Source: Raillietiella orientalis (lineage: Eukaryota). From it: a stretch of DNA of 64,000 bases. The translations under genes were made by a program, and so were the position numbers. Under the pieces are notes generated by a model that was not told the DNA's origin, did no database searches, and worked only from the letters and a program-made list of their open reading frames with translations. The stretch spans positions 2,728,001 through 2,792,000 of the forward strand of contig JAYWIR010000001.1 in NCBI GenBank assembly GCA_036172245.1, written 5' to 3'. Positions 3,001-62,097 of this stretch are shown here, piece by piece. Position 1 is the first letter of the stretch; the number at the start of each line of letters is the position of its first letter.

Positions 3001-6000
3001 GGGAACAGAAAGGAAGAAAACAAGGAGGAATGGAGACATGAAGGCCTCCACCGCCACCCGCCATGTCGCATCTCCGCGGAGGACGGTCTCTGGCGAAGCA
3101 CGAGGCGAGGAAAGGGGGGGGGGAGGGAAGGGGGGGGGAAACCCTGTGTGTCCTGAGGGAGACCAATACAGGAAGCAAGAGTCTCCCTCCTGTTCCTTCC
3201 CGGGAAGCTCTCCCCGCTGTCTGGAATATTACCCTGGGCAGACGCCGGGACGGTAAATGGCCAGCCTTTCGCTCGGTGGGACGCCGAGACGCTAGCGAAG
3301 TCCGGGCTTCCGCCGTTTCCATGACCCAGTTTCCCGGAGCATTCTCATCGCTGTCGTCTCCAAGCCGCGCTCGTGGCTGCTGCTGATGCTGCTGCTGTGT
3401 TTCTCTTCCTCTCTCTCTCACTCGGCTCACCCCCCCTCCCCTTCTCCCCTTCTTTTTCTTCTTCTTCCTGTCCGCGAGCGAAGTCGCGTCGCCCCGTCTC
3501 CAGGACGAAACCCGGGGCTAGAGAGCGGGGAACTGGGGAGCCGAATTTTCGAGAGAAACCGGGAGAGGAAGGAGAGGAATTCGGAAGTCGACAATGACCT
3601 CAGCTGTGGGAGCGAAGCGAGGAGCAACGCCAGGAGAGTCACAACACACACACACACACACAGGAGCCGTCCTTCGCTCCGCGGATATCCCCACTCCCTC
3701 TCCGAGCGTGCAGCGGGGAAAGGAGGAAAAAGAGCTCAAGAGATGGAGAAGGAACGGAGGTCATCAAGATGGAGGGCAACTCAGGCGGCGCCTGCAGCCT
3801 GAGGGGAAAAAAAGGAGAAGTCCCCCGGGACAGGGGGCCTTTAGAAAGCGGAAAGAAGGGGGAAGCTGAGGAGGGGCAGAAACGATGTTGTGCAGTGGGG
3901 TCAAGGGTGGACGCGCGCCGCCCTTCACTCCTCTCGGGGATGCACAGCGCCCAGAGGAGCCGGCCGTCGCGCAGGCGCAGAAGATCCCGCGGCGCTCACA
4001 GCCGAGAGGCGGCTCCTCCATCTGAACGGCTCAATTCGCGGGACCACAGAACCCGGAAGCGGGGGACCAAAACAACTGGGGGGAGGAAAAGATGCTGGGG
4101 ACAGCTCGGGACGTCCGCCTCTTCCCGAACCCATGATCGAGGGATCTCGAACTCCCGGCGGGAAATCCAGGAGCAGGTTCGAGACGCGCGCCCTCGAGCT
4201 CAACCGTCCGGTCCACCGTCCCAGTCTCTGTTACTCCTGCGCACGAGGTTACGCAGGAGCTCCCCAAGGGCGTCCGAGCCGGAGAGACGCGAAGGGCTGC
4301 CTTCCGCAGTCGGGCATGAAAGCGAAAGCGGCCTCCGAGGGTGATGTGTCCCGACGGAACTGAGCAGCAGCCCGAAGCGTGGACGGGGGGGGGGAAGAGG
4401 TGTTTTTATCGCAGATGAAAGCGGTTGCTCCCCAAAACAAGGCGTCTAGCCGGATCGACGGGTTCGAGGAAGCTGCTTTACGAGAGGTCGGCAAGCGAGT
4501 GGATGACCCGCACCCTATTGGTGAAGAACATTATATATATCTCTCTCTCTATCGAGAGAGGACAAGGGAGGGAGAGAGCAACCGCGATGTGGATGGGGAG
4601 ACGGGCAAATGCCCTCGAGGTCGAGTAGAAAAGAGTTGTCAATGGCACCGAGTTTTGGAGAGGGAAGGCAGCTGGAAAGGAGAACAAGGAGACCTCGGCC
4701 GCCCCGTGGATCTTAGAGCAGACTCATGGGCAAACCAGCAGAAGGAGAGCCACATGAGGGTGCCACGGGAGCTCCTCTCGTCCTTCTTCCGCCTCCCGGA
4801 GAGATAAACAAGCGCGCAGTTTAGGCGAGGCCGCCTTCTCTTTGCTGGAGGTGGCAGGAGGGACTGACCTCGCGAAAAGGGAAGAACGGACGACCGGAAG
4901 CAAGTGAGGTAGGGAAAAAGGGAGGGAGGGGGCGGCTCCGAAGAATAGGACGGGGCAGCTAAAGGCACGAGTGGGAGCCGGGAGGGCACCTGCCTGCCCA
5001 GCTCTCCGGGGTCCCCCTATCGCGTCCCACTCAGCCAGTCCCGACACCACAAAGCAAGCAGACCTTGCTCATCCGGGAATGCTCGGAACTTTTCCCTCAC
5101 CCTTCTCCTCCCGCCGCCTGCGGGAACTCCGCGATTGAAGGAGCGCAGGACTCCAGAGAGCACAGGCGTAGCTGCGCCCTGCATCTTCCCGACGCGGCTC
5201 TCTCCTCCTCCCTCTTCCCACCAGGAACGCCGCCCTTGCCACCCGCTCCCTCCCCTTCCTCCTTGCTCCCACCGTGAGAAGCGGAGGGAGCTACCGAGTT
5301 ATCTCAGCAGGTCTTCGGAGGGATCCGGGGCGCCGAAGACCGACCCACTAGAGACCTTTCCCTGACGTCAGCCAAAGACACTCCAGCTTATCTTTAGCCT
5401 CTCTACCGTCCCGCGTGGTTCCCTCCGTGAGATAAGAGTGAGATAAGAACCAGGATCTCTCCTGGCGAAGAGCGCGCTCCGTTGGCAGGAAGTCAACTAT
5501 GGGCTCTCGTTCTGCGAAGGAAGGAAGCGCAAAAGTCCTCCTCCGTCCCCCCCTCTCTCCCCTTTCGTGCTCGTGCGTGCACATGAGCGGTGGCGACGCG
5601 CGCGTTGGCAGCAGCAGCCACTTCGCAGGAACGCGCGCGCGGGTTCCTACGAAGCATTCAGCGCGCGCGCTGAGGAGAGGGCTGAGCAGAGGGAACCCAC
5701 CCCGCGGCGACGTGACGTCGGTGGGAGTCCTTTCGCAGCCGGGACAACGGAACGGCCCGCCGGCGTAATCGCAGGAACGGCGTGCCCCCGACGTCGTCGT
5801 CACAAAGGGACGCACGCTCTCGAGGAGCGGGAAGCCGGGCAGGACAAAAGGATCACTTCTCCGGGAAGCAATACTCTTTCTCAAGGGGCAAGGTGCGGGA
5901 CCGGGGAGGGAGACGCTCCTCCCGCTGCTCTGGGAGCAAAAGGAACGCTCCGGCGAGGTCAAACATCTGGCAAGGCCAGAAGGGGGATTCCCGGAGGCGT

Positions 6001-6769: not shown

Positions 6770-7490
6770 CTCTTCTCCGCTTCCCTCCCAATTTCCATGT
6801 TTTTCTTTGGTCCGCTACGTACTGAAGAACCATCGCGTTGCCTGGAGGCTCGCGAAACTCCTCGACGCTATCCACGCCCACCCGCGAGTACGTATGGACT
6901 CTTCAAGTTAGGGGAGGAGCCACCGTGTGAATCCAGGAAGGGGTCCGGAGGGAGAAGTCCGTCCCCCATTCACGCTCTTGAGATGAATTTCGAAGGGATC
7001 CTCGCCCTAGTTGCCTCCGAAGAGGACCCCATTCTCTTTCCCATTCTTTCCGGAGCGATCCTCGGAAAGGAGCACGCTATTGTTTTTTTTCCGGAGGGAA
7101 CCCGCAAGAAAACCGTTCCTTGCATCCTCCTCCTCTGGAGAGAACCCCGAAGGGGTGCTTCTTAATTTTCTCCGGAGGGTCACTCCCTGAAGGGAGCAGC
7201 GCGCTTCTTTACACTCTGAAGAGGTGTCGATCCACCAGCCTTGTGGTGCGAGATGGACGGCACCATCTTCCCAACCGGAGGGAAGCGTTCCTGGATTCCT
7301 GGAAGGACCCCAGAGGGTCGACTTCTAATCCGGGCAGGTCGGGGGGCTTCCGGCTTTCACCAGTGCCTCACCCGAAGCCACAAGACAACGAGCGTTATCC
7401 TGCGAGAGGAAGCTCATCCTTTCCTTCGTGGGACTCGAACCCGCTACGCCTGGTGCCGCGCACGGGGGTCGCAGCCGCACGGCCGCCGAC
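6770..7490 (-). mobile_element. tRNA-derived SINE-like repeat, copy A
   Basis: Minus-strand head with B-box GGTTCGAGTCCC (+ gggactcgaaccc near 7430). Body blocks actcttcaagtta, agaaccccgaa and ttcctggaaggaccccagagg are shared with the other copies; purine-rich tail. Ends approximate. Confidence 0.7.
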
Positions 7491-9159
7491 TCTGGCGCCT
7501 CCTCTCCGGAGGACATTCTCGAACTGCCCAAAGTAGGCAGGATAGTTAGGTCGTTTCCGTACCAGCTGCAGGGATCTGCGAGTGCCCTCCCTTGGACCGC
7601 GGTGGAGGTTCCCTTCGGAGCTCCCGCACCTTGAGGGCGTCGCCCATGACCGGCCGCGTGGAGTTCTCGGCAGGCGCCGCGACCGCGGCGTTCCACTGTA
7701 TTCACGTGGGCCATCGTGGCCGCTCGCCACGTGCTGGAGCCTCGGGGCGCAGCGGAGGGAGGCGGCTTGCATGGCAGTCACTTTTCCGAGGACCGCAGCG
7801 AGGGTGGCCCCATCCGGACGGAGAAGTCGCCAGGGGGTTCGTCAGCATTCCGCAACGTTCCCGATCGGGAAGAAGCAGCTGCTACCTCTTCTGTCCCTGT
7901 CCCATCCCTCCCTTCCCTTTCTATATTTATTTGTCGCTCCCCCCCCTTCCCTCCTGTTCCTGACTTCTTGTGAGTGACAGACTTGCGAAGCCCGTCATTC
8001 CCCCTGACAACGGGGGGTTCCTGTAGATTCGCTTGTTCTTTTACGGAAAAAACGACCCAGGGTGACCGGACGAAAGCGCGCGCCTGCATCGGTCCAGGAT
8101 CCTCTTGCGGAGTGGGAGGTCCGTCACCCGTGCGCGCGATGGAGGGTTGGCCCGCAGAGGAGCCACATCCGATGACCTCTACCGGGGCCTGGAAGCGCGG
8201 GAAAAAGTTGGGTCTATCCGCAACACTTTGAATCCCAGATCGACACCCTTCCTCCGCCACCGGGGTGCCGCCGCTATCTTGCCAGCGCACCGAAGTCCCC
8301 CTCGCTTACTGGAGATTCTTAACGCGCCCCAGTGGGGATACTCGCAAAAGTTCGCAGGATGCAGCAGAACTAGACCCCTGGCACTCGGGATGCGCTCGCC
8401 TTTCTCGGGAGACGCCGAGAGCAGCCCTCGCCTGCCCGTTGCCTCCCCTCTGGCCGTCTTCTGCCCCGCGCTGGCGACGGCAGCTGTGAAACGGAAAAAC
8501 GCAGCGCAGTGGTCAACCAGAGTAGTCTCCTACAAAGCGGTAGCGTTTCCGCTGCATCAGCCTGGCAACGGCTGCGTGTCGGTGGCTAAGGGGGAAAGGG
8601 ACGAAGCGAGCAGCGCTGAAGGGCACCAAAGCCCAAGCGATCTTCCCCCGGTCTGGCAGCTGTGCGCTCCCGGAAGTCGCAGCGACGGCCTCTCTCATCA
8701 CTGACTGAAGGTCACCGCCCCCCAGCAAGAGGCGTGAGTCCACCGCACCACTTCTTCAGACAGTACGATAAAGCGAAGCGCAGACATTCTGGTGGTAGGT
8801 CGAAGCCGTCATCAAGCTGCAGCAGCAACAGACGCTACTGCTGAGCTGCGGATGCCGTTGGACCAATGAACCTTCTCCTGGAAGGACTCCGAGGAGCAGC
8901 TGCGTCTGGAAAGATTCGCTTCACTCATCTGCAGGAGATTCGTGATGGGTGGATCCACCGCACCTGTTGGTCCGGAAGACGGGCAAATCAGAGATGCTGA
9001 AGATTAGCAGGTGGCGTAAGCAGCCTCACGGTGTGCTTACGCGAGGATCGCGTGAACACATCGCGAGGGTTTAAGCGGAAGGACTCCTTGCAGGAGTGCC
9101 ACTGCATCGCAGCTCTGGAGAAAAAATTTGCAGAATGAGAGCGAAGAAACATTCTCCCC

Positions 9160-9589: not shown

Positions 9590-10350
9590 CTCCTCAGCTT
9601 TTCTTTTCTTTTTTTTTTCCGGATTCTCAGCGAGTGCTGAAGAACCGTTTGCCTTTCTAAGGGAGTTCACAGCGCTATTTCACTCTGGTCACGCCATTCG
9701 GGGAGAGGACGTGTTAACTCTTCAGGTTATAAAGGTGACCCGGGAGAGGACCACCCTACGAGTCCGGGAAGGCTCAGGAGGAAGAAATCCAAGTCTCTCA
9801 GGAGGAGAATTCTCTAACTCCTGGCAGGGAAACCCCGAAGGAAATCTTATGCTCTCTGAAGGGACTCCTGGAGGGGACCAATCCTCATTTCTTCCTCAAT
9901 CCTGATTTCTTTCCCTTCTGCTCCTGAAGAGAATAAAAAAGAGAACCACGAAGCGACGCTTCCCGATCTCTCTAAAGGGTCGCTCCACCGGAGGCAGCAG
10001 AGCGCTCTTTGTACTCTAGAGAGGCAACCTCCGAAGGTCCTCCCTCGGAGGTATCAACCAGTTTCATGGGACGGTTCCATTTTCGCAACCGGTGGGGAAT
10101 CCTGAAGGGCTTTATGGTGTCCTGGAGTGACCCAGAAGGGTCGACTTTCAATCTCGGTCAGCCAACGGGTGCATCCTAAGGCTTTTGGTTTCAAACAGTG
10201 TTATCTTGAGGGGATAGGGGGGGATTCGGAACCCACAACGCCACCCCATTTCTCGGCGTAGATCCTTCCCTAGTGGGATTCGAACCCGCAACGCTGAGTG
10301 CCACGCGTGGAGGAAGCGCAGCCACAAGGCCGCCCACGCAGGCATGAGGG
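9590..10350 (-). mobile_element. tRNA-derived SINE-like repeat, copy B
   Basis: B-box GGTTCGAATCCC (+ gggattcgaaccc near 10275); shared blocks actcttcaggtta and gggtcgactttcaatc; T-rich tract near 9600 is an A-rich tail on the minus strand. Confidence 0.7.
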
Positions 10351-12169: not shown

Positions 12170-12957
12170 TCTTCCTCCCCAGCCCCCCCGGACAGTTCTT
12201 CCCTTCTTTCCTCCATCCATAGCCAAGTGGCTCCAGAACCGTCGCACGCCTGGCGGCTCACGAAGCTTTCCGATGCTGCCCACTCCACCCGAGGGTGAGT
12301 GTCACTCTTCAAGTTATAGGGGCTACTCCGGGCGAGGACCCTGGGAGTTCAGGAGGGCTCTGGGGAAAGGAGCCGGTTCCTCTCATGCTTGGGAGGGAAT
12401 TCCGAAGTGAACCTTCACCCTGTCTGCCTTCGAAGAATACCGAAGGAAACCACCTCTTGGATATTCTCTCCGGAGGGACTCCCAGAAGGGGACTAATCCT
12501 CGTTTCTTCTCCGAAGGAAACCCGTAAAGGATCCAATCCTGGAATTTCTTCTCGATAAGGGAACTGCTCCTTGCGTCCTTGTCCTCTGAAGACAAGAACC
12601 CCGAAAGGACTCCTACAGACTCCTACACAAGACTCCTAAGTCCTTCTGCTGGAGGACACATCTTCACACTCTGGAGAGCTGATGGCCCACCAGCTCCATG
12701 GTACGGGATGGACGGCTCCATCTTCCTAACTGGAAGAGAACTCTGAAGGGTTTCTCGATTCCTGGAAGGACCACGGAGGGTGCGACTTTTAATCCCGACA
12801 GATCATCAGGGGCTCTCGGTTTTCCAGCTCCCGTTTCCTCCTCCTCTTCTTCTCTTCAGAGTTCATGCCGCTTTCCTGTCCTCGTTTCCTCCCTTTTGGG
12901 ATGGAGAGAGAATCCAGCTCGGACGTGGTGCGGGCACAGGAGTGCGTGGAAGGCCGT
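12170..12957 (-). mobile_element. SINE-like repeat, copy C (degenerate head)
   Basis: Shared blocks ggctcacgaagct, actcttcaagtta, agaaccccgaaaggac, gatggacggctccatcttc and ttcctggaaggacc, in the same order as the other copies. Confidence 0.65.
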
Positions 12958-15900: not shown

Positions 15901-18900
15901 CTTCCTTCCGGTCGGTCGAATGGGGTACGAGGAAGTGGAAGCGACGGGGTGGAAGTTGGGGAGAACGGGAGGCCGGAGACAGGCTCGCATTCCGCCTTCT
16001 CCGGTCGAAGGCTTGCCCGATCACACGAAGTTTCTTCCACGAGTGAGAGAGAAGGCTGGCTAAGTTCGTCAGTTGCCATCGAACTCGCCCCTTGCGTGCG
16101 GGATTAACCCAGAAACGCGAAGGGCTCTGAGAATAGGTGGCATTGCATGCTCCCCTTCAGCCACATGCATCACGGAGGGGCGAGAACCTCGCTCGCATTC
16201 TGCCAGAAGCTTTTCTGCTAAGAGATTCAGTCGTCCGGCCGGCCTTCGACAAACCCAGCTGCCGTGCAGAGGCATCTGTGAACTCGTCTCTGAAGCTCGC
16301 CACGATCCCGGACTACTCAAAGTTCGCACTGACGATACGTTATCTCTCCTTGCAATTGTATCTTTTCCTTCCCATTCCAGTCTAATACCAGGTCATTTGT
16401 CGTCGTCCGAATCTTGCAAAAAGAGACGCAAACACAAGGCTTGTGATATACTTACCGAGGGGGAGGGACCTCATTAAAAAGGGAGAGAGGTCGCAGAGTA
16501 AGAGTAGCGGCTTGGTATGGCACTGGTGTCAAAGGACCGGATGGTGAGGCGAAAACCATTGCCTTTTGCGAGAGCCCTTCATGCGCCTTCACTACCGATA
16601 CAGGAAGAATCACAGCGATACAGCACCCTTGCAAGTCAATATCTGTTTCCGACTGCCAAAGCGTTTTGCGAAAAGGGGTCACCGAGGAAAAGTAAGCTGT
16701 TTTGTCCAGGCGCTATTGTACAGTTCCACCACGAAGATGCCCCGTTATGAAGTGTTATCATGAAGGTGCATTTGCAGGGCAGCATCGTGGGTCGATCATT
16801 GGGCAAAATGGCACTCACTTCGTGAAGCAGCATTTTCGAATTCACTGAAAGATCTCTTCGAGGTGTGGAGCAAAGTCCTTCCCAACTGGGCAACATCTCG
16901 AATCGTTTAGGTTCCGTTGGATCTCTTCTCGGAGTCCTGGGAAATTTTTCCGGAGTCTTCACGCAACCAGATACCTCCATAGTGACCTTTCTGATGGCTG
17001 GAGAGGGAACAAGGGAGCAACTTTGTTCGTCTGAGAAGAGAACAGCTACTTGCAGGAAGGTCTCTGATACTGAATGTGAAGAAGGAACAACAGGATGTCG
17101 GACGGTCTGTTGTTCTTTGAACCTCTCAAGATTATTCCTGGCGAAAAAATCCAAAGTGGAAAAGAACGAAAGGTGTCAGCAGATTAATCGGATTGGCCGT
17201 GACGTTCGCAGACTCCTGCAGGTCTTCTAATCCCGAGATCACAGGCTCTTGATCGATCATAGTTTGTCTCCACTCACCCTATGATCCCCCCTAGGTATTC
17301 TCTATCAGATCTTCTGGCAGAAAGTTCTGTTCATGGTGTTCCAGAGGGTTTCGTAATTTTCCTTCCCGTTTCCCTGCTCTTCATCGTTCACCGAGAGAGA
17401 GGAGGGGACACCGAGGACGTATTTTCTCGCTCTTCGGGATGCATAAACGCACTTGCCCTGGACAGAATCCGGGAGTATCTCTGATCATCTATGTTCCTCC
17501 AGAAATTTCAGGAGCACATTTTAAAGAGAAAACGCTCAGTTCTAGGTAGAGGCAGCTTGGAGGGAAGAAATGACTTAAAACATCCCGTCTTCTGCGGTCG
17601 AGTGTTCCAATTCCTCGGTGTGAGCAGCCTCTTCAACGGCATCTGCGATGTCTCTCTCTACTAGAGCTGGCAACTGCAAACAGACATCCTCTAAGCCTTC
17701 TTCGACAGCTCCCCCACTGCAGAGATCATCAAACGCTTTGCTGTTCGTGCTCGAGTATGTGTCGGAGCCTCTGGAAGACTCTCTTTCCTGTTGAGAAAAC
17801 GGCGAAGTCGTTGCTCCAGGAGGTGCAGTCCAAAGCCTTGAGGCAGTTGCTTGCGGGGCGATGTTGCTGTCATTGTCCACCAGATGAAGGAAAAACGTCT
17901 GAAATTTCGTGGTTTCCCATCTCCCTACTTGGGAACTCGAGAAGCGTTCGGGATCTCGCCATCATGTGGCCACCTTTCGCCTCCAGCTCGTGGCTCATGG
18001 AAAAGAAGACTCTCTAGCCGTGTCTGCTCGTGTATCAAAAGGCTGCTCGACATCCTCAAGAAATGGTTCTCAGGTGCAACAGAAGAATCTCGAACTGTCT
18101 GGTTCGAACAGGCGGCGCGCGCGCCCGTCCACAGAACGCTTCCTTCCTCTGCCGAAACGGGGAAATGCAACGAGCCGTGAACGTGACATCCGTCCGGCGA
18201 AGAGCCCTCTCGTGCAGCAGCCGAGAGTCACGGAGGCTTCCAGAAAATTTAGGTGCCTGGGATGATGAAAAAAAGGAGGGAACTCTTTCAAACCTCCTCC
18301 AGGGACAAAGGAAAAAAAGAAAACCTGGGAACGCCTCGGGAGAAAAAGAGAGAAGGAAGCGCTTGCGAAATGCGGTCGCGTGCGAGCCGATTCATCTGCT
18401 CTCGACTCAAAATCCTCGGATCTCTTATGCAGAACGTCGCGAGGAAGGCTCCACGGAAGTCATCTCTGCCCTACTCCTTCTCCCTGGCACTCCATCGAAA
18501 GGTAAAGTTGCTGATGGTTTCCGTGTTTTGGCTGCCACCCGCTCCACAACCTCGCGAGAAAAAAGGCATGGTGCGTCCCCGCAGATCTACGAACGCGCTG
18601 GACCACTCCAACTGCCGGTACTTACTTCCCTGAGGAGGGAAGCGACGTACTCCTCCTCGAGCTGGTTCCTTCCCGAGAACGGAGCAGGACAAAGTCCCGT
18701 CGATGGACAAGAAAGTCTTCACCACTGCGCTTTGAAATTGTCCGGTTGCCCTGCTGCCCCACTGTTTCCCAGACGACGGCACACGAGGACTCCCACTGGC
18801 TTCATTGAGCTTCCCTCTGCTTGTGCACAGCCAGAGATGTTTTCCAGATGCAGAAAGATGTCGACTCCGGATCCCCGTTTCGGAAGCGCAGCCGCGAAAT

Positions 18901-21900
18901 GGATTTTCTTGGGCACAAGAGCCAGCGGAAGAGAAGGGCGCTGCACCTGAGTGACCGGTCACAGAAGACTTGCTGCAAGGGATGCAAGAATCAACGAGGA
19001 AGCCATTCTTCTCGAAGTACGCAGACGGTGTCCTTGACCGGAAGAAAGTCAAGGCGCGACCGAATTTGTCGAGACGGAGAGGACCGCAAGGCAAACGTCT
19101 CAAAGGGAGGATCAGTGCATTTGGGAATTTCGATAGGCAGAGCCTATTTGGAGGAAGTGCGAGACTCCTAGGATAGCCCTACCCGGTCAACTTTTCTCCT
19201 CGCAGAGGCATTCGAACGATTTCCAGAAGAATCGCGCAATCGGGAGACCCGCAGCATCTCAGAGGAAGCCGCAGGAAGAGAATTCGCTGGGACAGGCAGC
19301 AAGGAATAGGAACGGAGGTTTTTGATAGGTCCTGTACGATCACTCTGCAGTTTCTCAACAAGAGGTGGGAGCCGTCTAGTGGTAGGCAGAAGGTCAGGCA
19401 GACCTGAAAGAGGTCTCTCCTGCCGTGGTAGGGGTGCATCGGAATTGGCAACCGGATTGCAGGGTTCTCGAAGCAGTGGGAAAAAAGTCTTCACGTGCAC
19501 TGGCACCTACGGATCACTGGAGAGCGCAAGGAGCAAGATAGAACTCATCACGGGGCGGGGCGGATTCGAATCAGACTCTCCCCCAAGAGAACGCCGGAAA
19601 GTGGGACAGTCGCTACAGGAAGTGCGGCAAAGTGGACCGCCTACGCGTCTGGAGGAGCGCACACACGTCGTAAGAACGATGAGCACCCATTCACCGTGGG
19701 CTGATCTCTGAACCGGAGAATGGGGTCGGCTGCACTAGGGGCCGGGCTGACGTCATCCCACGACGTGATAGAGAATTTTTTGGCCAGAATGACGCGAACT
19801 GCGAGATGAGAAATGGCGGCTCGTTGGCGTCGTGCAACGCGGCCCACATAAAGCCCCACCACGTGCATTCGCTCGCTGCCATGCCACAGAAGGAGAGCAC
19901 GATAAAACGTACCAGCGGATACCATGTGCGTGCGTGGGCGTGCTGGCACCAATAGATTGCATTACTGCCGACGGATACATATGACGCAATACACAGTGGT
20001 GTGGTCTTTCCCTGAGCAGTGCGTATGCAGGATGATTTCAGAAAAGATGCTGCACTAATGATAAGTGAAGAAACGGATCGACGGGAAACTGAAATAAACA
20101 TAGGACACGTACCAATTAATGAAGCTCCCGGAGACACGCATCACCCACACGACAGTGCACGTGGAATACGAAGGCGTGATCCAAAGTTTCCAGGAGTTTG
20201 TGCTGGAGGATCACCCTGGAAGTTTCGCAGTTACGAGGCAGCCAGCAGGTCCATTTTTATGAAGTTCGAATCGGCACAGGGATGGAGCCAAAAGAACCGT
20301 TGTCAAGAGACGTTGGAGAATGTCTGGTGACTTTACCGTCCTTGTCCGCGGTAGTATGCTCCCTGGCAATCCATCCCTCTGTTCCCAGCATGGAATTTGG
20401 GGAATTTGGAGGAAAAGAGACAGAGCGTCCCTATGAAGCCAAACTACTATCCGACCCATGTGGCTTTCTCTTGAAGGTTTCTCTCGCAATAAATGATGCT
20501 GGAAGGTAAATGCTTTGGTAGCATCCTCTCACTCACAAGATTGCGGATCACATCCGTAAATCACTTCACAGCTGAAGACTTCCAGCATGGCGCTCAGAAG
20601 CAGCAGCAGCAGCGTTTAGGCGCTTCCGCGACTTCAGCCGAAGGCTATCCTGAAGGGGACATGCATTCTTACGTTGTGCGCGCACGTATGTATGCGTAGA
20701 ACGAAGACGAAGTCTTGGAGCATCCTGACCACCTCCAGCAGGCACTACAAGAAAATTACGCTGCATCCACTTTCATGTGTGCACTCCTCTTCACTCGAGG
20801 TCACTTCGTATACCCATGATCCATGCTTCATGCTATACTCCTCCCTAGCATTCTTTGTGGTCAGAGAGACACGAGTGCTCTTGCAGCACAGTGAAAGTGG
20901 ATGATGATCCTTGCTTCCCCAATTTACCGGGTTGAGAGGAAGGGGGGGGGAGATATTGCACGATGGGTAGCGTGGCACGCGATGCCTTGTCCAAAGCCAG
21001 TGCCCAAAGCAGGATCTGAAAACACGGAATTCTCCAGGATGCCTTCGAGATCGCAAGCGTCTCGTTCGGATGTTTCCACTGAGCCTTTAAGCTCACAGGA
21101 GAAACACCGCTCGACCTCTATGGCAACGTACGGAGGCACCAAACATCTTCAAAATATGTTCCCAAGGAATGGGCGCATCACGACATCGTGGAGACCTCGC
21201 ACGAGCTGCTGGAATGCTCAATGATGCAGCACAGCTGGAGACCCGTCGCTAAGGGGCACTTGACTGTCCGAGGTGATGCTCCCCGAGAATTCATACGGAG
21301 GACACTTCCCTCCTCTAGCCTAGCTTCCAGAAAAGGGAGCCCGCTGCTAAGCCAGAAGCACCCAAAGGAACCCTGTGCGAAGCTGGCCGAAAAGGTGGCT
21401 CCAAATGAAGGGCGCTGCAAGAGGGCTCTCCAGGAAAGTAGCGAGGAAAGCCGCAACAGAAACTTTCACGATTTCGTCCTCACTTGTCCCTTCCTGACGC
21501 AGGTCCCCGCTCTTCCCTGTGAGACACATGACTTCAGAGCACGGCCAGCAGGATGTCCCGCCACCTGACGGGCCACCTGGCTCACCCTGCAGGACGGTGT
21601 TACGCGCGCACCACCTGAGCCACCCTCTCAGAGATGATGCGGCATCCGATGGAGTGAACCCACACACTCGCAAAGTCCAGGGTCCGTCGCCGCTGAAGGA
21701 ATGAAAGCAGCCGAGCGGGAATTCACCTGCACCCGATGACAGGAATCAGCCCGGCTGACTGGGGGAGGCCCGAGGGTTTCGAGCTGGGCGTACCTGCTAG
21801 TCCTCTCTCGAAGGAAACTGACAGCCCCTCCGAAGACAACGAGCAGCCTTCGCTCTACACCGGGAGGAATCGTCCCACAGGCGTCGTCATAGCGTCGCCG

Positions 21901-22273
21901 GAACAGAAGTCCTTCCCCCTCCTCCTGCTTTTGCTCCCCCTCCACCCCCGAATCCGTGCGAGGGGTGCGCGCTCTAGTGGAGTTCCACCCCACATCTCTT
22001 ATTCGTCCTTCCAGCCGGACAGCATCCCGACAGAGGAACCCTTGCGCGACATCTTCGTCCCAGACGACTTTCGACGGCCTTGCAGCAGTCACGATCCTGT
22101 GCCGCGTCCGCGTGGCATCAAGGCGGATCGTTTTTCAGACGGCGTCGCGCGCCATCTCCACGCCAGGGGGATGGCAGCAGAGAGTTCGGCTCAACCTGGC
22201 ACCGACAGCAAGGGGAGGAGGGCACCACTCGCACAGCGCAAGGGCGGAAACCCTATGGACTCTCCTCCTGTTA

Positions 22274-22283
22274 TTTATTTATT
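22274..22283 (-). terminator. Candidate distal poly(A) signals, overlapping AATAAATAAA
   Basis: tttatttatt on the + strand in GC-rich surroundings; motif only. Confidence 0.35.
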
Positions 22284-23153
22284 CTTCGTCTCTTCATCCG
22301 TCACTTCGGACGTCCTGACTCCCCCCTCTTTTCCCGCCCAGACCAATTGGGCGTCCATCAGCACAGCTCCTCCACCCTTATTCCGCGAGATTCCAGGATG
22401 AGACTCGGTTCCCCTCCTCGTGTGTTTCATTTCTTGATACGGGACGATCGGAGTGGAACGCACAGACCGTCGGGAGTCGTCATCATCTCCACGAGGGTTA
22501 AACGGACCGGCCCCCCTCGCTCCATCCTTAAACGCGCACCTCCTGCTCTCTCTCTCCCTCAGCCGGCGACTTCCTCCTGAGTGCTGCCTTGGGACCCTTC
22601 CGCCTCTCGCCAGCAACAGGACTTCCCTACTCGCAAAAAGAAACTCGTTTGTTCCTTAAATAAATGGCGCCGCGAAATCCACGGGAGGACAGGACGTGTA
22701 CGTCCGTAGCGTTGGCAACAGCACGCTCTGGCTACCCGCACGCCAGACGGCGAGCACGTCCGAGCGTGTGAGACTGCAGTCCAGCAATCCAGAGCGAACG
22801 CTGGGCAGTGCAGTGCGATGCCGCTGATGAGCGGGAGGAACGGAAGGTTCCACGTGCTCTGCTGCCAGTTGCGGGGGTGGCCCACGCGAACGCTGGCTGC
22901 TCACGTACTCCGAGCGCATAGCAACGGCTCGCTCGCTCGCACTGGGGAGGCGCGACAGCTACTGGCAATGCGTTCCAGCAGCCAACTGACTGGCCGTGAC
23001 CTTGAAAGGAGCCTCCAGGGAGAGAAGGCGGAAAGCGGCGTTCCGGCAGCCCGTCTGGCCGCACACACGAACGGTCCGCATCCCACGCCGATTCTTCGCG
23101 CGGCAGACCCCGGTCGCGCCAACGGAACCGCGGGCCAAAGAGTACCCTCTTTG

Positions 23154-23219
23154 GCCCGTGCCGTGACCTCGCACCTCGTCTCCTTCCTCGCCACCCTCCC
23201 CCTCCCCCTGCTCCTTCCC
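23154..23219. repeat. Inverted-repeat arm B
   Basis: gcccgtgccgtgacctcgcacctcgtctccttcctcgccaccctccccctccccctgctccttccc is the reverse complement of arm A. Confidence 0.95.
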
Positions 23220-25001
23220 TTGTACAGGCAAACGCAGGCTCAGCGTCTCCATCCTGAAGGGCCGAACCTGCTCCAGAACTCTCTCCCCCTCGTTCCCAGT
23301 GCCCCGTAGCGCTAGGAAGCCTTTGGAAGGAGGGAGGCTGCGCCACAGCCGGAGGGGACCAAACTGAAGGAAAACTTCCAATCGTCCTGTCGCCTGGGTT
23401 CGGCAGACCTCTGGTCTTTCCTCCTCATCTGATGGACGTTTCTGAGGCGAGCGCGCCCACAACCGTTGGAGCTCTCTTGACGGATCCCCGAAGGACATCA
23501 AGCGAAAGGAAAGGGAGAGAAGCCTCGTAGCAGTGGAGGTCAACTAAAGAGCGAAGAAGGTCGCCGTCCTTACTCGTAAGCGGACTCTCTGGGAATCCGG
23601 CATCCAGTTATCAAAGGAGGTCAGTTCACCTTGCCTCCCCCTCCATCCATGAGGTCCCGAGGGATCTCTCCCCATCCCTCCTCCTCCTACCTTCCCTGCC
23701 CCAGCAGCCTGCCGAGAGACTCTTCAAGTAGCCTGGATGAGCGTAAGACGCGAGGATGCACCCGAGATGGCAACTGCCCAAGTCAGGAGCGATGCCCTCC
23801 TGCACCAGTCACTCGAGAAGGCCAAGCCGCACCGGAACCACGGCAGACGCGGGCGGTAGACCCCTCGGGCGCTGACCTCAGACCCCTCCCTAGTGCAGCC
23901 GACCGTTCGAAGAAGACCTCACCTTTCCCTCAGGAGAATGAATCCTCCCTCCTTTCCTGTTCCTCCTTCGCCCTTCCAGAAACGGAACCACGCTGGCTAG
24001 AAGCTCCCCTCGAGCAATCCATCCTTTCGCTTTGAGCGAGAGGGATCTCCTCGCAGTCTCTTGCCTTCACCTCCGTCGCCTTGATGGTGGAGTGGTCTCG
24101 CACTCTCCCACCGAGAGGGAGGGAGTTCAGCCCGCCCAACCGTTGGAACGGAGAGGCGGCAGGCGCTCCAGAGCGCCCGATCCTTGAAAAGAGCCGTTCT
24201 TCCCAGCTACTTCGAGATTACAGCGGCGTTCTATCCCCGGAGGAACCTGTTTGTCCCTTGGCAGCATTTTCTGTGGTCTCGGAGGTCTCAGATGAACCTG
24301 TCTGTCTCCTGGCAGCGGCCGCAGCTCCAGCATCGCTGGACTCTGAGGCGCTCCGAGATCCGGAGCGCCACCTTCTCTCGGCAGAGCCCTGGTAACGCTC
24401 CAGATGGCAGGCCGCGCAAGGTCTGGGTCCGCTCCCTTCGCCGAGGAGCCAGGCGCGCGTGCAAGATGAGGACAGGAGAGGCTGAGTTCAGCTCCCGAAG
24501 ACAGGGACGCGCGCGACCCGGGTTCACGGGGCTCCGAACGGAGGAGGGGAACGCCGGTGAAAGGCGAATGCTTCTGCAAGGGGATGGTGGAAGTGACCAA
24601 GGAAGGGCAGAGGAACTGGAAGGAGGCGAGGACAAGGACTGTCGGTTTCGGCAGAAACAGAGATCCTCGTGAGAGACCCGAGTGCGCCTGAGGACGGCCT
24701 CCAGAATCCTTGGAGGCGTCCGGCGGGCCGAGATCGAACAAGTTCCGGTGGCGCGCACCCTCTGCGGCGGCGATGCTGAGGACCGACCACCTGCGGGGCC
24801 CGAGCCTCACAACTAGTTCGCTCACGGGTCCACCGCGGGCTCCATGACAATTCTGTTCTGCAGTGGCTGCTGCTCCGGCTGAGACGGTCGCCGGACCTGG
24901 CAGGACCAGCTGCTCACGGAATCCCAGCACGCGTGTGACCTTTCATCGAACGAGTGACCTCTTTTTCTCCCGAGCTTTCCTTCTTCTTTTTGAGCCACTC
25001 G

Positions 25002-25007
25002 TTTATT
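25002..25007 (-). terminator. Candidate proximal poly(A) signal AATAAA
   Basis: tttatt on the + strand about 1.66 kb after the stop codon; motif only. Confidence 0.35.
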
Positions 25008-26565
25008 CGCTTATTGATTTTGTCTTCCGCAATGCGGGTGAGGAAGACAGGCTCAGCTGAAGGGCGGAATCCACAAGGCTTGCTCCAGGGAGGCAGACCC
25101 TACCCGTGGGCCCACGTCCCTCACAACCCGTCGGCAGCTCGCGCGCGCCTCTTGACTTCCAGCAGCCGAAAGATGCGTGGACGGCCCATCGTTGAAACGA
25201 GATGCTTGCCGCTCTTGGAACGTGCGAAACCGCCCCACTGCCGCCCCAGGAAGCAGCGCGGCAGCACTTTCGCTTTCGCTCCCTCCCCCTCCCGTCGAGG
25301 CTGCACCTGCGCGAGTGGAAGGAGGGGAAAGCGCGAAGGCGCCCCTCCCCCTTCTCCTCCTCTTCCTCCTCCTCCTCCGCCGTCTGGTCACGGGAGGGCC
25401 GCCCCTTCGTTCCTGTTTCCGGGACGGGGAGAAGTAGCGCATCAGCAGCCGGACGGAAGGCGGAGAGGGAGGACGAGAGAAACCGGCGGTGGGAACGGGA
25501 AGCCGAAGGGAGAGGGAAGAGGACGGGAGAATTCGAGGCCTGAACTCGGGAACGTGATGTCGGGGGGCGGGGGGGGACACGGCGGACGCTCCCCGGAGCC
25601 CGTGCCGCCGAGGCTGACGTCACTCCCGCCAGGGGGCGACTGAGGCCTTTCCCCCGCTTAGCCCGAGGCCTCCTATCCAGTGCGAGGGCTGCCCTCTGCT
25701 CCTCCCCAAAGGACGGGGGAGGGACAAGGAGGGAGGGAGGGCAGGAGACGGTTGCGGCGGCGGTGTGAGGTGGGGAATATCCTCCCCCACCATTCCAGAC
25801 CTCGTCCCGGTCGGGCCGACGGCCCGCTCCTCCCGGGCGCGGCGAAAGAAAGAAAAAACCACAAAATTCCTTTTCCTTTTTTTCCTTTTTTTTCCTTTTT
25901 TTTTGTTTCCTCTTTTTCCTCAGACGCGTCCTGGGGAATTCACCGGGATCTCTCCGCTTCTCGTTTCTCCGCTCCTCCCTTCCTTCCCAAAGTCGGGCGA
26001 CCACAGCGTCCCCTCGAGGAGGAAGGAACGGGGAAGAGGGGGGTGTAGAGGGAAGGGGAAAAACGGGAGAGGGGGAGGGGAGGGGAGCGATAGAAAGGGA
26101 GGGAGGGGGGAGGGGAGTAATAATAATAATAAAAAAAAAGTCCCGTTTTTGACTTGGGAGGACCTCTGGAGGGCCGGAAGGAGGAGGGGTCGTGGGGGTG
26201 GGGGGTGGAGGGCAGCGTCGATCTGCCGTTGCATGGCGGACCGCCTTGCCGGCTGCCCTCGAAGATCTCCCTGCCTCCCCTGATTTTTCGTCCTCGCCGT
26301 CCTTTCGTCGAATGTCTTTCGTCCTTTTTTTCCCCTCCCCTCTTTTCACCCCTCCCCCCCTCCCCTTCCCTTTTTTTTTTTTTTTCCTTTTTCCTTTTCC
26401 TTCTCGAAAAACAAACGAACGGACGAGCAAACAAACAAACAAAATGGCAGCGAGAGCGCCCTCTTCTTCCGGGCGGGGTCGGGAGGGGGCGAAGAGGGAG
26501 AGAGAGGCAGTGGGACGACCGGAGTGGATCGAGTTCCCCCCCCCCCCCGACCGTCCGGCCGGCGC

Positions 26566-26641
26566 GGGAAGGAGCAGGGGGAGGGGGAGGGAGGGTGTGG
26601 GTGGCGAGGAAGGAGACGAGGTGCGAGGTCACGGCGCGGGC
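26566..26641. repeat. Inverted-repeat arm A, starting after a 23-nt spacer following the rn stop codon
   Basis: Its reverse complement matches 23154-23219 apart from one substitution and a 10-nt insertion. Confidence 0.95.
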
Positions 26642-26664
26642 TGCGTGTCCGCGACCTCCCTCTC

Positions 26665-27126
26665 TCACTGCACGATCTTGTCCTTGAGTCCGAGCAGGTG
26701 CTCCGTGCTCATCGCGGGCTGGTGCACGTAGTTCCTGATCTGATGCAGCGAGATGAGCTGGTTGGGGAAGCTGGCCGAGGGAGACTTGACCTCGGCGGCC
26801 GCGGTAGCGGGGGGCTTCGAGAACGGCAGCGTGTCGTAGTGGAAGAAGGGGCGGGATGGGGCTTGGATGGGCGTGAAGGCGGAGGTAGTCTTTCCGGGAC
26901 CCACGGGCAGGTGGTCGTAGGCGGCGACGGACGGAAGGTGCCTGTGCAGGTCGTCAGGGAGCGACAGCGGGGGAGGACGGACAAACATGTCGTTCTGCTG
27001 CTGCTGCTGCTGCTGCTGGGGAGACGCCGTCTCCATGGTGTTCGCCGAGGTCGTCGTGGGAAACGCGACGACGGACGAGGAGGACGAGGAGGTCGCAGAA
27101 GGATGCTGCTGTTGTTGTTGTTGTTG

Positions 27127-27168
<42 letters not shown>

Positions 27169-27180
27169 TTGTTGTTGTTG

Positions 27181-27231
<51 letters not shown>

Positions 27232-27795
27232 ATGCTGTTGTTGTTTCTGTTGTTGGTGCTGTTGCTGGTGGTGGTGGTAGTGGTGGACGGTACTTACTGT
27301 CCGTTTGTCTGTGTGCTTCTGCATGTGCTTGGTCAGGTAAGTCTCTTGAGTGTACGATTTGCCACAGTACTGGCAGATGTGCGTCTTGAGGTGCTTGGAC
27401 TCCTTGTGCTTCGGGATGTGCTCCAGCAGTGACGGTTCGTCGGAGAAGCACTTGTAACACGAGTTGCACTTGTAGGGTTTGTCGGTCTGGTGGCACCGGG
27501 AGTGACTTTGGAGGTTGGAGAGCTGGCTGAACGCCTTGCTGCACCCGGGATGCCGGCACTTGTACGGTTTGTCCCCCGTGTGGGTGCGGATGTGCTGCTG
27601 CAGATGCGATAGCTGGGTGAACTTGCGCTGGCAAATCTCACATCTGTAGGGCTTGATACCCAGGTGGATGCGGGTATGCTGGGACAGGTAGGAGCTGTTC
27701 GCGAAGGCCTTGTTGCACTGGGAGCACTTGTAAGGCTTCGCTTCGCGCATGTGCATTTGATTGTGCAGCTGGAGGTCTGCCTTGGCGCCGAACAT
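26665..27795 (-). CDS. rn: Last coding exon: second half of ZF1, ZF2-ZF6, polyQ and C-terminal domain
   Basis: Acceptor tgttgtcgttgcag|ATGTTCGGC after a pyrimidine-rich tract; 1131 nt ending in TGA at 26667-26665. The upstream part of ORF-track entry 26665..28248 is intron read-through. Confidence 0.95.
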
Positions 27796-36981: not shown

Positions 36982-38738
36982 AGAGCGAGCGCGGATCAAC
37001 GGGAAGGACGGGAAGAAAACCCCCGTCGTGCCGAAGCGCCCGCCGCCGCACATCGTAGCACGGCGGCGAGACTTGGCGCGCGCGGGTCGTCCGGGTCGCG
37101 CGCGCGTCCAACTTTCCCGTGCCTCATCCACTTCGATTTTCATCCGTAGGCGAGGAGCAGACCGCTTCGGCGCGCGCGCGCGCCTCGCGGGCGAGCGAGC
37201 GAGGGAAGGGGGGGAGGGGGGAAGGAACCTCTGGCGGCGGCGGCGGCGGCGGCGGCGGCAGCGGCCGCTCCCGTCGGCTGCGCCGCCCCGTCCCCGGTCG
37301 GGCCCGCCCTCGCACGCCTTGGCCTCCGCGTCCCCCCCTCCTCCTCCCCCGCTGGAGGGGGGAGACACGCCGCCAGCCGAGCGGGAGCCGAGCGAGAAAG
37401 CGGGCGCAGCCGTCCGGCGGCTCGCCGCCGCGCGAAGCCTCTGGGCATGGGAAAAAAAAAAAGATACGGCTAATCGATTGACGTCAATGAAACCTTCATC
37501 CGTTACACAATTGGGCAGACACACCGGCGGGGGGAATTCCATCCTATCGGGCTTTTTCGCAACTGAAGTTTGGCAACCGGAGGATTCCGGGCTCTCGCGT
37601 TCCCAGACTTGGCAGCTCCCACCTTTACGTCACAAGGTCAGTCGCAGCCAGACAAGATACCATCCCTGCGCACTGCGTCACACGATCGAAAAATCAGAGA
37701 TTACACGGAGCGCACGTTGCATCACAGCTTCTCCCTCCCTCCCGGCAGCCTCCTCCCCCGCTTCCTCCTCCCGCCCTCCCTCCTCCTCCCCTTCCTCCTC
37801 CTTCCGCGTACGTTCATCCGCAAACGGACATTTCCCAGAGCCGCCGGAAAATTTAAAAAAATGGATAAATAAATGAAATGAAATGAAATGGAAAAAATCG
37901 CGTGTTTCGAGGGAAGATCCGATAGCGGCAGTGGTGGCGCTGGCGCCACGCCGCTGCTCTTCCTCGTCTTCCCCCGTACACGCTCTGTGTACGAGCTGCA
38001 CCCGCGCAGACGGCTTTGCAAGTGAGCCTTCGCCCGGGGCGCTCCGAACACGTACGGTGCCTGCGTACACTCGTGGAAGCACAGATGTGCAGCACCTGTG
38101 CACATGCACACGTACGCCACGCGTGCGTACGCGCATGCCATGTGGCGGGACGACTCGAGTGTACGAACACACCTCTACGCCCACCGTGTGGCGTGAGCGA
38201 AGACACGCAACGTACAGCCGTACAGGCGACGGCGACGCCCGCTGTCCACCTCCCCGTGCACCGTGCAGGTGCACGCGAGTGCCGGTCCCTCCCTCCTCTC
38301 ATCGTACGTGCGTGTACACATACGTGCACGCGTACGCTCGTGCCATGTGGCGGGACGAGCCGAGTGTACGAACACACCTCTACGCCCGCTGTGTGGCGTG
38401 CGCGAAGACGCGCAGCGTCCAACCGTACAGGCGACGGCGACGCCCGCTGTCCACCTCCCCGTGTACCGTACAGGTGCACGCGAGCGCATGTCCCTCCCTA
38501 CCTCCTCCTGGCGTACGAGAGCGCGCTCGCGCGTACGCCGAGCAGACGGGAGGAGAGCGAGCGTGCACGTACGCGTACAGCGTGCGCGCGATCGAGCGGG
38601 CAGGGTGGCGCAAGTACAAGCGTACACAGCGTGGTACTGGAAGTCCCCGAGGACACGACTCACCTCTGGGTAGACGTTCAGCATGGCGTTCTTATTCTCG
38701 TCAGCTTCCTGGATGCTCAGATTCGTGATGCAGTGCAT
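26665..38738 (-). CDS. rn: Rotund/Squeeze/LIN-29-family C2H2 zinc-finger transcription factor, spliced model join(38738-38664,32640-32461,29907-29554,27795-26665), about 579 aa
   Basis: All three introns are GT..AG and phase 0, so the exons join into one ORF. Six C2H2 fingers: KYQCKMCPQ/MFGAKADLQLHNQMH, PYKCSQCNKAFANSSYLSQHTRIH, PYRCEICQRKFTQLSHLQQHIRTH, PYKCRHPGCSKAFSQLSNLQSHSRCH, PYKCNSCYKCFSDEPSLLEHIPKH, THICQYCGKSYTQETYLTKHMQKH. These and the C-terminal FPNQLISLHQIRNY motif are recognised as rn/sqz/lin-29 family. rn versus sqz orthology needs a phylogeny. Confidence 0.9.
27106..27231 (-). repeat. Coding polyglutamine tract, 42 consecutive Gln
   Basis: Codons read (CAG)4 CAA (CAG)9 (CAA)8 (CAG)10 (CAA)8 (CAG)2. 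Confidence 0.95.
28490..28500 (-). other. Candidate 11-nt microexon TAGCGGAGATG (8 nt if the tandem CAG-TAG acceptor is used)
   Basis: Long U-rich tract ending ggtgttgttttcag directly upstream and donor ATG|gtaagc directly downstream, inside intron 3. Confidence 0.55.
28936..29092 (-). other. Candidate alternative upstream exon for a short isoform
   Basis: Donor GCCAG|gtgagg at 28936/28935. ATG at 29092 gives 157 nt (phase 1), which the microexon restores to phase 0. Nearby GA-repeat and (CG)n tracts resemble those in the main promoter region. Confidence 0.4.
29554..29907 (-). CDS. rn: Coding exon 3 (SKSSISEPP...GRKYQCKMCPQ), contains the Cys half of ZF1
   Basis: Acceptor ttccttttctcccag|AGCAAG and donor CCTCAG|gtcagt; 354 nt, phase 0/0. 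Its CxxC completes ZF1 with the HxxxH in the next exon. Confidence 0.9.
32461..32640 (-). CDS. rn: Coding exon 2 (KTSLLWSSVSDPDHIK...GLVHWMSVMAEH...HYMWNGVE)
   Basis: Acceptor gtctttgcctttcag|AAAACC and donor GTCGAG|gtgaat; 180 nt, phase 0/0. GLVHWMSVMAEH and YMWNGVE resemble the N-terminal block of arthropod Rotund-like proteins. Confidence 0.85.
36946..37259. repeat. (CGG)12 at 36946-36981 and (GGC)9 at 37233-37259
   Basis: Read directly; CpG-dense surroundings. Confidence 0.9.
37477..37724. promoter_or_regulatory. Intronic enhancer or internal-promoter-like motif cluster
   Basis: ATTGACGTCAAT (37477-37488), GTTACACAAT (37502-37511), GGGGAATTCC (37531-37540), TTACGTCA (37625-37632), CAAGGTCA (37633-37640), TTGCATCA (37717-37724). 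Confidence 0.5.
38136..38499. repeat. Tandem duplication with period 205 bp in intron 1
   Basis: 38136-38294 aligns to 38341-38499 without gaps; 14 mismatches in 159 bp by manual count. Confidence 0.92.
38664..38738 (-). CDS. rn: Probable first coding exon (MHCITNLSIQEADENKNAMLNVYPE)
   Basis: Consensus donor CCAGAG|gtgagt at 38664/38663; ATG at 38738 is in frame; phase 0 matches exon 2. The start could instead be the second in-frame ATG (MLNVYPE). Confidence 0.65.
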
Positions 38739-61279: not shown

Positions 61280-62097
61280 TCTTCTCCCCCTCCCCTCCCA
61301 GTTTCCTTCTTTCTCAAGGAGCGTTGAAGGATTGTCCGCCCCTTCAGGGAGGCTCACGAAGCTCTTTAATGCTCTTTAACACTGTCCGCGTCACCCGAAA
61401 GTACATGTGGCTCTTCCAGTTAGGAAGTAACCCCGTAGGGACCACCCTAAGAATCCAGGAAGGCCCCGGAGGAAGAACACTCTTACGCTCGGTAGGGGAA
61501 CACCGAAGGAAACCTCTTCCTCATTCTTTCCGGAGGAATCCCTGGAGGCGGACCGCACCTTGTTCCTCCTCTGAATGGAACCCAGAAAGGATCCGCTCCT
61601 GGAACTTTCTCTCTGGAGGGAACTTGCACGAAGGAAGAGGGAAGCAAGGAGGGAGCCTCTCCTTGCTTCCTCTGCTGAAGAGAACCCCGAAAGGACGCTT
61701 CTCAATTTCTCTGGAGGGTCTCTCCCCGAAGGGAGCAGCGGGCTTCTTGATACTTCGGAGACGCAACCTCCGATGGAGACATCAACCAGCTCCATAATAC
61801 AAATCCATTTTCACAAGCGGAGGGGAGCCCGTAGAGAACCGACTCCTTGATTCCTGGAAGGACCCCAGAGGCTCAAGTTCCAATCCCGTCCAGTCCACGG
61901 GGCATCCAGGAGTTTCCAACTCACACCATTGCCTCACCCAGAGTCCGTGGAACAGACAACGTTGCCCTGGGGGGTGGGGGAGTGGACTGGAAACCCATGG
62001 CTCACCCTTCCCTTACCCGGGCGGGATCCGAACCCACAATGCTTGGTGTCACGCGCGTGGAGACCGCAGCCACGCGACCGCCAACGCGGCGGACCCG
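61280..62097 (-). mobile_element. tRNA-derived SINE-like repeat, copy D
   Basis: Minus-strand head with A-box-like TGGCGGTCGCGTGG and B-box GGTTCGGATCCC; body blocks ggaggctcacgaagct, agaaccccgaaaggacg and ttcctggaaggaccccagagg. Confidence 0.7.

Follow-up and report, generated by a model that had tools for sequence, protein, structure and literature searches.

The window analysed here is a 64-kb stretch of DNA, and the gene of interest lies on its minus strand. Translation, the Pfam zf-C2H2 model and homologs identify 26665..27795 as the final coding exon, TGA included, of a C2H2 zinc-finger gene of the rotund/squeeze family whose product contains a polyQ tract; the coding part of this exon (27795-26668, minus strand) encodes the C2H2 fingers. 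The C-terminal 107 residues match 78 proteins, and the named ones are mostly rotund, squeeze or ZNF362-like proteins from arthropods and one onychophoran. These homologs end at the same point as the protein encoded here, indicating that the TGA at 26667-26665 is the normal stop. No close paralog was found in the genome. The polyQ region is encoded by a CAG/CAA tract of ∼55 units (27104-27267). The last-exon frame also runs on without a stop for 186 codons into the upstream intron (28353-27796, minus strand), and some homologs (P0018, P0021 and P0035) have extra sequence at the last-exon junction; an alternative acceptor is possible.

Behind the stop lies one half of a long-range inverted pair. 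Arm A (26566..26641, minus strand; 76 nt) starts after a 23-nt spacer and is the reverse complement of arm B (23154..23219, plus strand; 66 nt), which lacks 10 nt of it. The arms pair over 5 bp, then over 37 exact bp beyond a mismatch at 23159/26636, then over 23 exact bp beyond a 10-nt gap, with a loop of 3346 nt between them (23220-26565). A second in-frame TGA (26629..26631, minus strand) closes an 11-codon extension, EREVADTQPAP. An earlier sequence-only reading had described this arrangement; comparison of the arms within the window confirmed their coordinates, pairing and distance, and translation confirmed the spacer, the second TGA and the extension. That reading had noticed no third copy in the window and had proposed a search for copies elsewhere. 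A search of the 210-Mb genome, which skips simple repeats and very common words, returned two matches, arm A and arm B (second match E 1.7e-18), and thus the arm is not a high-copy repeat and the inverted pair is unique to this locus. The similarity of the arms is far above random expectation (E 6e-14 in a comparison with an 864-kb sample). Neither the loop nor the left flank had further genomic copies except four short matches to one low-complexity stretch.

Two features at the arm junctions were absent from the sequence-only reading. The first is a palindrome at 23129..23160, with a perfect 12-bp stem and a 4-nt loop (23131-23158), whose stem would reach 14 bp but for position 23159. It overlaps the outer end of arm B, an overlap that occurred with palindromes of at least 12 bp at 4 of 3000 random sites; the 864 kb sampled from three contigs held 34 hairpins of at least 11 bp. 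The second is a 9-bp direct repeat, CGGCGCGGG, on the plus strand, with one copy at the inner end of arm A (26560..26568) and the other at its outer end (26632..26640); a direct repeat of this kind was seen around 0.27% of the 4450 positions examined locally and around 0.19% of those in the sample. The motif CGCGGG is common to the left arm of the palindrome and both repeat copies, extending to CGCGGGC in the outer copy. In addition, the outer junction of arm B has a 7-nt microhomology with the outer end of arm A. The left arm of the palindrome and both 9-bp repeats have C where arm B has T, indicating that the "A:C mismatch" of the sequence-only reading is derived: judged from these comparisons, and whichever of the models considered applies, arm B underwent C>T at a CpG, position 23159. 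The palindrome at arm B is a candidate snap-back signature or stall site.

We favor, with moderate confidence, the explanation that arm B is a templated insertion from one microhomology-driven repair event, of the Pol theta/SD-MMEJ or MMBIR type, without evolved RNA function. The event would have begun with a break or stalled fork near 23150. The left 3' end would then have snapped back across a 4-nt loop, with 3-nt GAG/CTC as the primer, and copied its own strand, producing the palindrome and the new end GCCCGCG. Through this 7-nt microhomology the new end would have paired with arm A's outer end, at a distance of 3.4 kb, and some 60–70 nt would have been taken from there in inverted orientation; a long fold-back from the right end would be equivalent. 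The ends would have rejoined at 23219/23220. Finally, 10 nt would have been lost between CCC repeats and C23159 would later have become T at its CpG. The repeat, the palindrome, the common motif, the derived T and the two-copy status are observed; the order of events, the direction from A to B, the enzyme and neutrality are what we infer.

The geometry of the palindrome (3-nt primer repeat, 4-nt loop and 12–14-bp stem) fits the snap-back model. In SD-MMEJ, as passages of PMC5728401 describe it, a 3' end folds onto a primer repeat of 3–4 nt less than 10 nt away and is extended, so that the inverted repeat grows longer and a new microhomology arises, and templates lie within ∼30 bp. The template distance proposed here, 3.35 kb, exceeds both this figure and the 100 bp of MMBSearch, and only the palindrome falls within that range; we therefore file the pair under template-switch duplications generally and not under classical SD-MMEJ. 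A Pol theta-like gene, a family A polymerase, is present on contig C11, a finding of presence only; its best solved-structure matches were to Pol theta (E 5e-29, against 2e-15 for Pol nu).

The 9-bp direct repeat around arm A is left unexplained by insertion of arm B, and it fits two rival histories. One of them is a neutral template-switch event in the reverse direction, with arm A as the inserted copy: a 10-nt microhomology would have let synthesis in the UTR jump to arm B, where about 56 nt would have been copied before a return by way of CCC, nine bases back, left the repeat. Only two switches, with 10 and 3 nt of microhomology, would be enough, and the repeat sits precisely at both ends of arm A. 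Against this direction, the palindrome would become a coincidence (about 0.5% over four junctions), and a local stem behind the stop, described below, would become a by-product as well. The composition of the arm also bears on the direction. Arm A scores as proximal UTR, with 18–40% of 38 held-out UTR windows reaching its score, and it is atypical of intergenic DNA, in which at most 1.2% of 420 windows score as high. Compared with arm B's own neighborhood the distinction is weak (log-likelihood ratio of 0 to 3.7, and negative for the 37-bp core). This UTR-like composition favors arm A as the probable donor, weakly so relative to the neighborhood of arm B, and arm B as the probable templated insertion. 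We consider insertion of arm A unlikely.

In the other rival history, which we also regard as improbable, the arms mark a 3.4-kb inversion with one breakpoint duplicated, which would have reversed the bulk of the rotund 3'UTR region. The palindrome would have stalled replication and the 9-bp repeat would have served as the microhomology for the switch, giving both features a causal role, and an AATAAA at 26128 on the plus strand, with a U-rich tract behind it, is consistent with a flipped loop. However, low-complexity sequence of UTR style continues directly from arm A, as expected without inversion, and flipping the UTR of a developmental regulator would probably be costly. The loop has almost no strand skew by which the inversion model could be polarized. 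An inverted loop would mean that most of the 3' region was replaced and that the gene tolerated this. Taken jointly, the three neutral repair versions (arm B inserted, arm A inserted and loop inversion) very likely cover the origin of the pair. The sequence-only reading had called a recent neutral duplication equally possible; the neutral origin has held up and has gained a specific mechanism, and the equal odds have given way to a neutral origin that is clearly ahead.

We also considered a transposable-element origin, with the arms as terminal inverted repeats or captured fragments of such an element, an idea that is already largely refuted and very improbable. A weaker inverted pair lies nearby (19724-19763 / 23865-23904), and decayed repeats occur elsewhere in the window, as would suit an element. 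On the other side, no further copies of the arms, the loop or the flank were found in the genome, no target-site duplication surrounds the pair, and none of the 76 frames of 17000-26660 matched a mobile-element domain in Pfam, the only matches being two weak ones below the cut-off in one frame. A Helitron 3' end has CTRR 10–12 nt behind a hairpin; this motif was absent on either strand, and the Helitron candidate was rejected. The decayed repeats are pieces of one family with 68–88% identity (7128-7496, 9718-10343, 12435-12824 and 61411-62087), and a separate 205-bp tandem duplication (1.8 copies, 90% identity) occupies 38125-38504. The weaker inverted pair is 40 nt long with 80% identity and contains an exact 17-mer, which genome-wide occurs exactly at these two sites only, plus one site with one mismatch on contig C23; an older switch event may have produced it. 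We did not accept the idea of a long, decayed inverted repeat across 18–25 kb: no more than one 40-nt pair reached E 4e-4, and its alignment score of 58 sits at the top of the null range (maximum 60).

Local duplications of this kind are not restricted to the window. A self-BLAST of 864 kb gave 30 local pairs within 20 kb, of which 15 were two-copy in the sample and 5 of these 15 inverted. The dust filter of this self-BLAST masked the arm pair itself, and an exact-word scan of the same 864 kb was therefore added; it gave 34 rows, the arm pair among them. All three scanned pairs that were searched genome-wide were two-copy. Since two-copy local duplications keep turning up, they form a recurring class, with roughly one inverted pair per 170 kb, and by a rough inference some local inverted pairs land behind a stop codon by chance. 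The junction signature does not generalize here: a junction palindrome of more than 6 bp was found in none of 11 other hand-picked pairs, and palindromes in general were not linked to a nearby copy of at least 20 nt (1 of 34 palindromes versus 16 of 150 random sites, the latter presumably lying mostly inside large repeats). The three sampled contigs (C1, C2 and C3; 864 kb) contain 34 perfect short-loop palindromes of 11–26 bp, compared with 3–4 in Markov simulations; this ∼tenfold excess suggests frequent fold-back repair or an unrecognized element end. Larger duplications were also seen: a 7.7-kb inverted duplication on C3 (2087237-2103702) with 99.9% identity, arms 1 kb apart and nested repeats of 0.66–1.06 kb, and a 5.1-kb direct duplication on C2 (2131943-2146295) with 97% identity.

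An assembly artefact is extremely unlikely. In one sequencing run, possibly of DNA, compared with 21500-27095, three 151-nt pieces matched exactly, and none of 8 out of 49 pieces crossed an arm junction, which would be compatible with misassembly. However, the contig is 12.2 Mb long with no N in the window, the two arms are set apart by one substitution and the 10-nt gap, and the junctions carry a coherent biological signature.

Any function of the pair in RNA requires that both arms be transcribed together. The first AATAAA in the gene sense (25002..25007, minus strand) is a candidate proximal poly(A) signal; it lies about 1.8 kb ahead of arm B, near the end of the UTR-like low-complexity sequence, and no GU-rich element follows it, so its poly(A) role is putative. 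Two overlapping AATAAA (22274..22283, minus strand) form a candidate distal signal, likewise proposed from the motif, which would put arm B into a long isoform. With a proximal AATAAA lacking a GU-rich element and a distal pair beyond arm B, a long isoform is possible. The sequence-only reading had the duplex looping out most of the UTR; the pairing holds, but arm B lies past the first AATAAA.

If the long isoform exists, a 60-bp duplex would form. Whatever the origin of the pair, a transcript ending near 22260 could then use this duplex to affect stability, editing, localization or readthrough, a role that we consider quite improbable. The duplex (37 + 23 bp) does form in the minimum-energy fold of the 3611-nt region, and in isolation it is predicted at -155.7 kcal/mol. 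The distal AATAAA pair is present, as is a gene with an adenosine-deaminase domain, for which ADAR and ADAT are not told apart. However, the palindrome hairpin occupies the first 5 bp in this single minimum-energy fold, and pairing of the arms begins 29 nt past the stop. Known readthrough stems begin 7–12 nt past the stop in the cases covered by the cited part of PMC3159437, and distance is critical for the Drosophila dfr readthrough structure, according to sections of PMC13170385. The pair resembles the alphavirus and Drosophila hdc, kelch and dfr readthrough stems of these two sources in having structure 3' of the stop, and differs from them in its spacer of 23–29 nt and its UGA-G context. 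The favored context, UGA-C, is described as a tendency in passages of PMC5100048 and is not obligatory where structure is present.

The remaining details also weigh against an RNA role. A23159 is unpaired at a helix junction, and no A:C lies inside the helix of the predicted fold. Both differences between the arms, the mismatch and the gap, break pairing and neither compensates. The duplex is GC-rich (73%, 48/66 bases) with a 10-nt bulge. Long-range 3'UTR duplexes bound by Staufen1 are AU-rich, symmetric and bulge-poor as far as the excerpted text of PMC10164587 goes; the candidate duplex would resemble them in spanning most of the 3'UTR, and departs from them in its GC content and its bulge. 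Rfam gave four weak miRNA matches far below the gathering score, none of them on the arms. The interpretation put forward by the sequence-only reading thus fared unevenly: its neutral alternative is favored, and its functional proposals failed on each testable detail. The supposed ADAR site falls outside the predicted helix and reflects the derived C>T, the supposed readthrough stem is too far from a non-leaky UGA-G, and the supposed Staufen duplex has the wrong composition and a bulge.

A local stem offers a further reading. This 10-bp stem (26625..26658, minus strand) starts 6 nt past the UGA, borderline relative to the 7–12-nt readthrough range, and it excludes the long duplex, which is what suggests an isoform-dependent off-switch. 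It is modestly stable: 3 of 500 shuffles matched it in a 45-nt window chosen after seeing the stem, 21 of 500 in 70 nt and 27 of 200 in 221 nt. In such a scheme, a repair-born insertion would have been co-opted as a poly(A)-site-dependent RNA switch of rotund readthrough. In the short isoform the local stem would permit readthrough into the 11-residue extension; in the long isoform the 60-bp duplex made with arm B would unzip the stem and turn readthrough off, and the duplex may recruit ADAR or Staufen. We regard co-option of this kind as very unlikely. Its nearest precedent, by analogy, would be the readthrough interaction of ∼3.5 kb known in tombusviruses (abstract of PMC3234231), which has a similar span; unlike the tombusvirus interaction, the distal partner here would unzip, not stabilize, the stop-proximal stem. 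A literature search by title and the start of the abstract found no rotund readthrough, and "rotund" is absent from the main text of PMC5100048 and PMC13170385, whose supplementary gene lists may bear on it. If the long isoform is real, a single repair event would have made an isoform-specific duplex in a developmental regulator.

We compared the locus with 47 rotund-type loci from a metagenome scan, in 46 of which the stop was located. Twelve loci had at least 3.5 kb downstream and 11 of these were usable. No inverted partner of the first 150 nt of the UTR was found in these 11 distant loci (scores of 22–28 versus 113 for the window); several are near-duplicates, so that they amount to fewer than 11 independent tests. 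Locus L116, with a score of 271, appeared to be a second case, and it was dropped on finding that the whole record (1-4763) is palindromic with indel errors, a read-through chimera; such a read artefact is able to mimic an inverted-pair finding. The stops of the 46 distant loci were 30 TAA, 9 TGA and 7 TAG, and extensions past the stop ranged from 0 to 88 codons; this variation in stop identity and extension length may weigh against an RNA role as well. In none of the 26 orthologous loci tested did the extension resemble arm A. Since these loci are distant, the comparison shows no more than that the element is not an ancient trait of rotund. Seven related loci (L094, L095, L096, L098, L100, L101 and L102) keep a 30-codon open frame after UAA-U with a few amino-acid differences, a candidate for conserved UTR or readthrough on sequence grounds.

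Taken together, the arm edges resemble a one-off DNA-repair accident, so that the pair is probably ordinary and not an RNA control switch; we conclude that it is probably a neutral template-switch repair scar downstream of the rotund gene. As such, it serves as a legible case of a fixed repair event with several switches, from an arthropod-like genome. It also cautions that one repair accident and one transition can suffice to give a long-range 3'UTR duplex with an "A:C mismatch".

The pair shares features with several known repair products. Like the snap-back events of Drosophila SD-MMEJ, as presented in passages of PMC5728401, it has a short primer repeat, a small loop, a longer inverted repeat and a new microhomology; unlike them, it carries a long segment from 3.35 kb away and is a natural fixed allele that arose with no induced break. 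Multi-template insertions of this type are known as human germline variants, and, in the part of PMC8421209 that describes such MMB-TI, they too contain an inverted copy of a nearby unique template, several switches and microhomology, seen here at the outer junction. Those variants were called against an insertion-free reference with templates at most 100 bp away, whereas the event here is known from the filled allele alone. Among the 29 Drosophila inversions in the relevant portion of PMC1885836, 17 are marked by inverted duplications of unique sequence, a pattern that would suit the inversion history, and the pair resembles these breakpoints in that non-repetitive sequence is duplicated in inverted orientation at two sites. 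It differs from them in its 3.4-kb scale and its 66–76-bp duplication, and here inversion of the loop is only a candidate.
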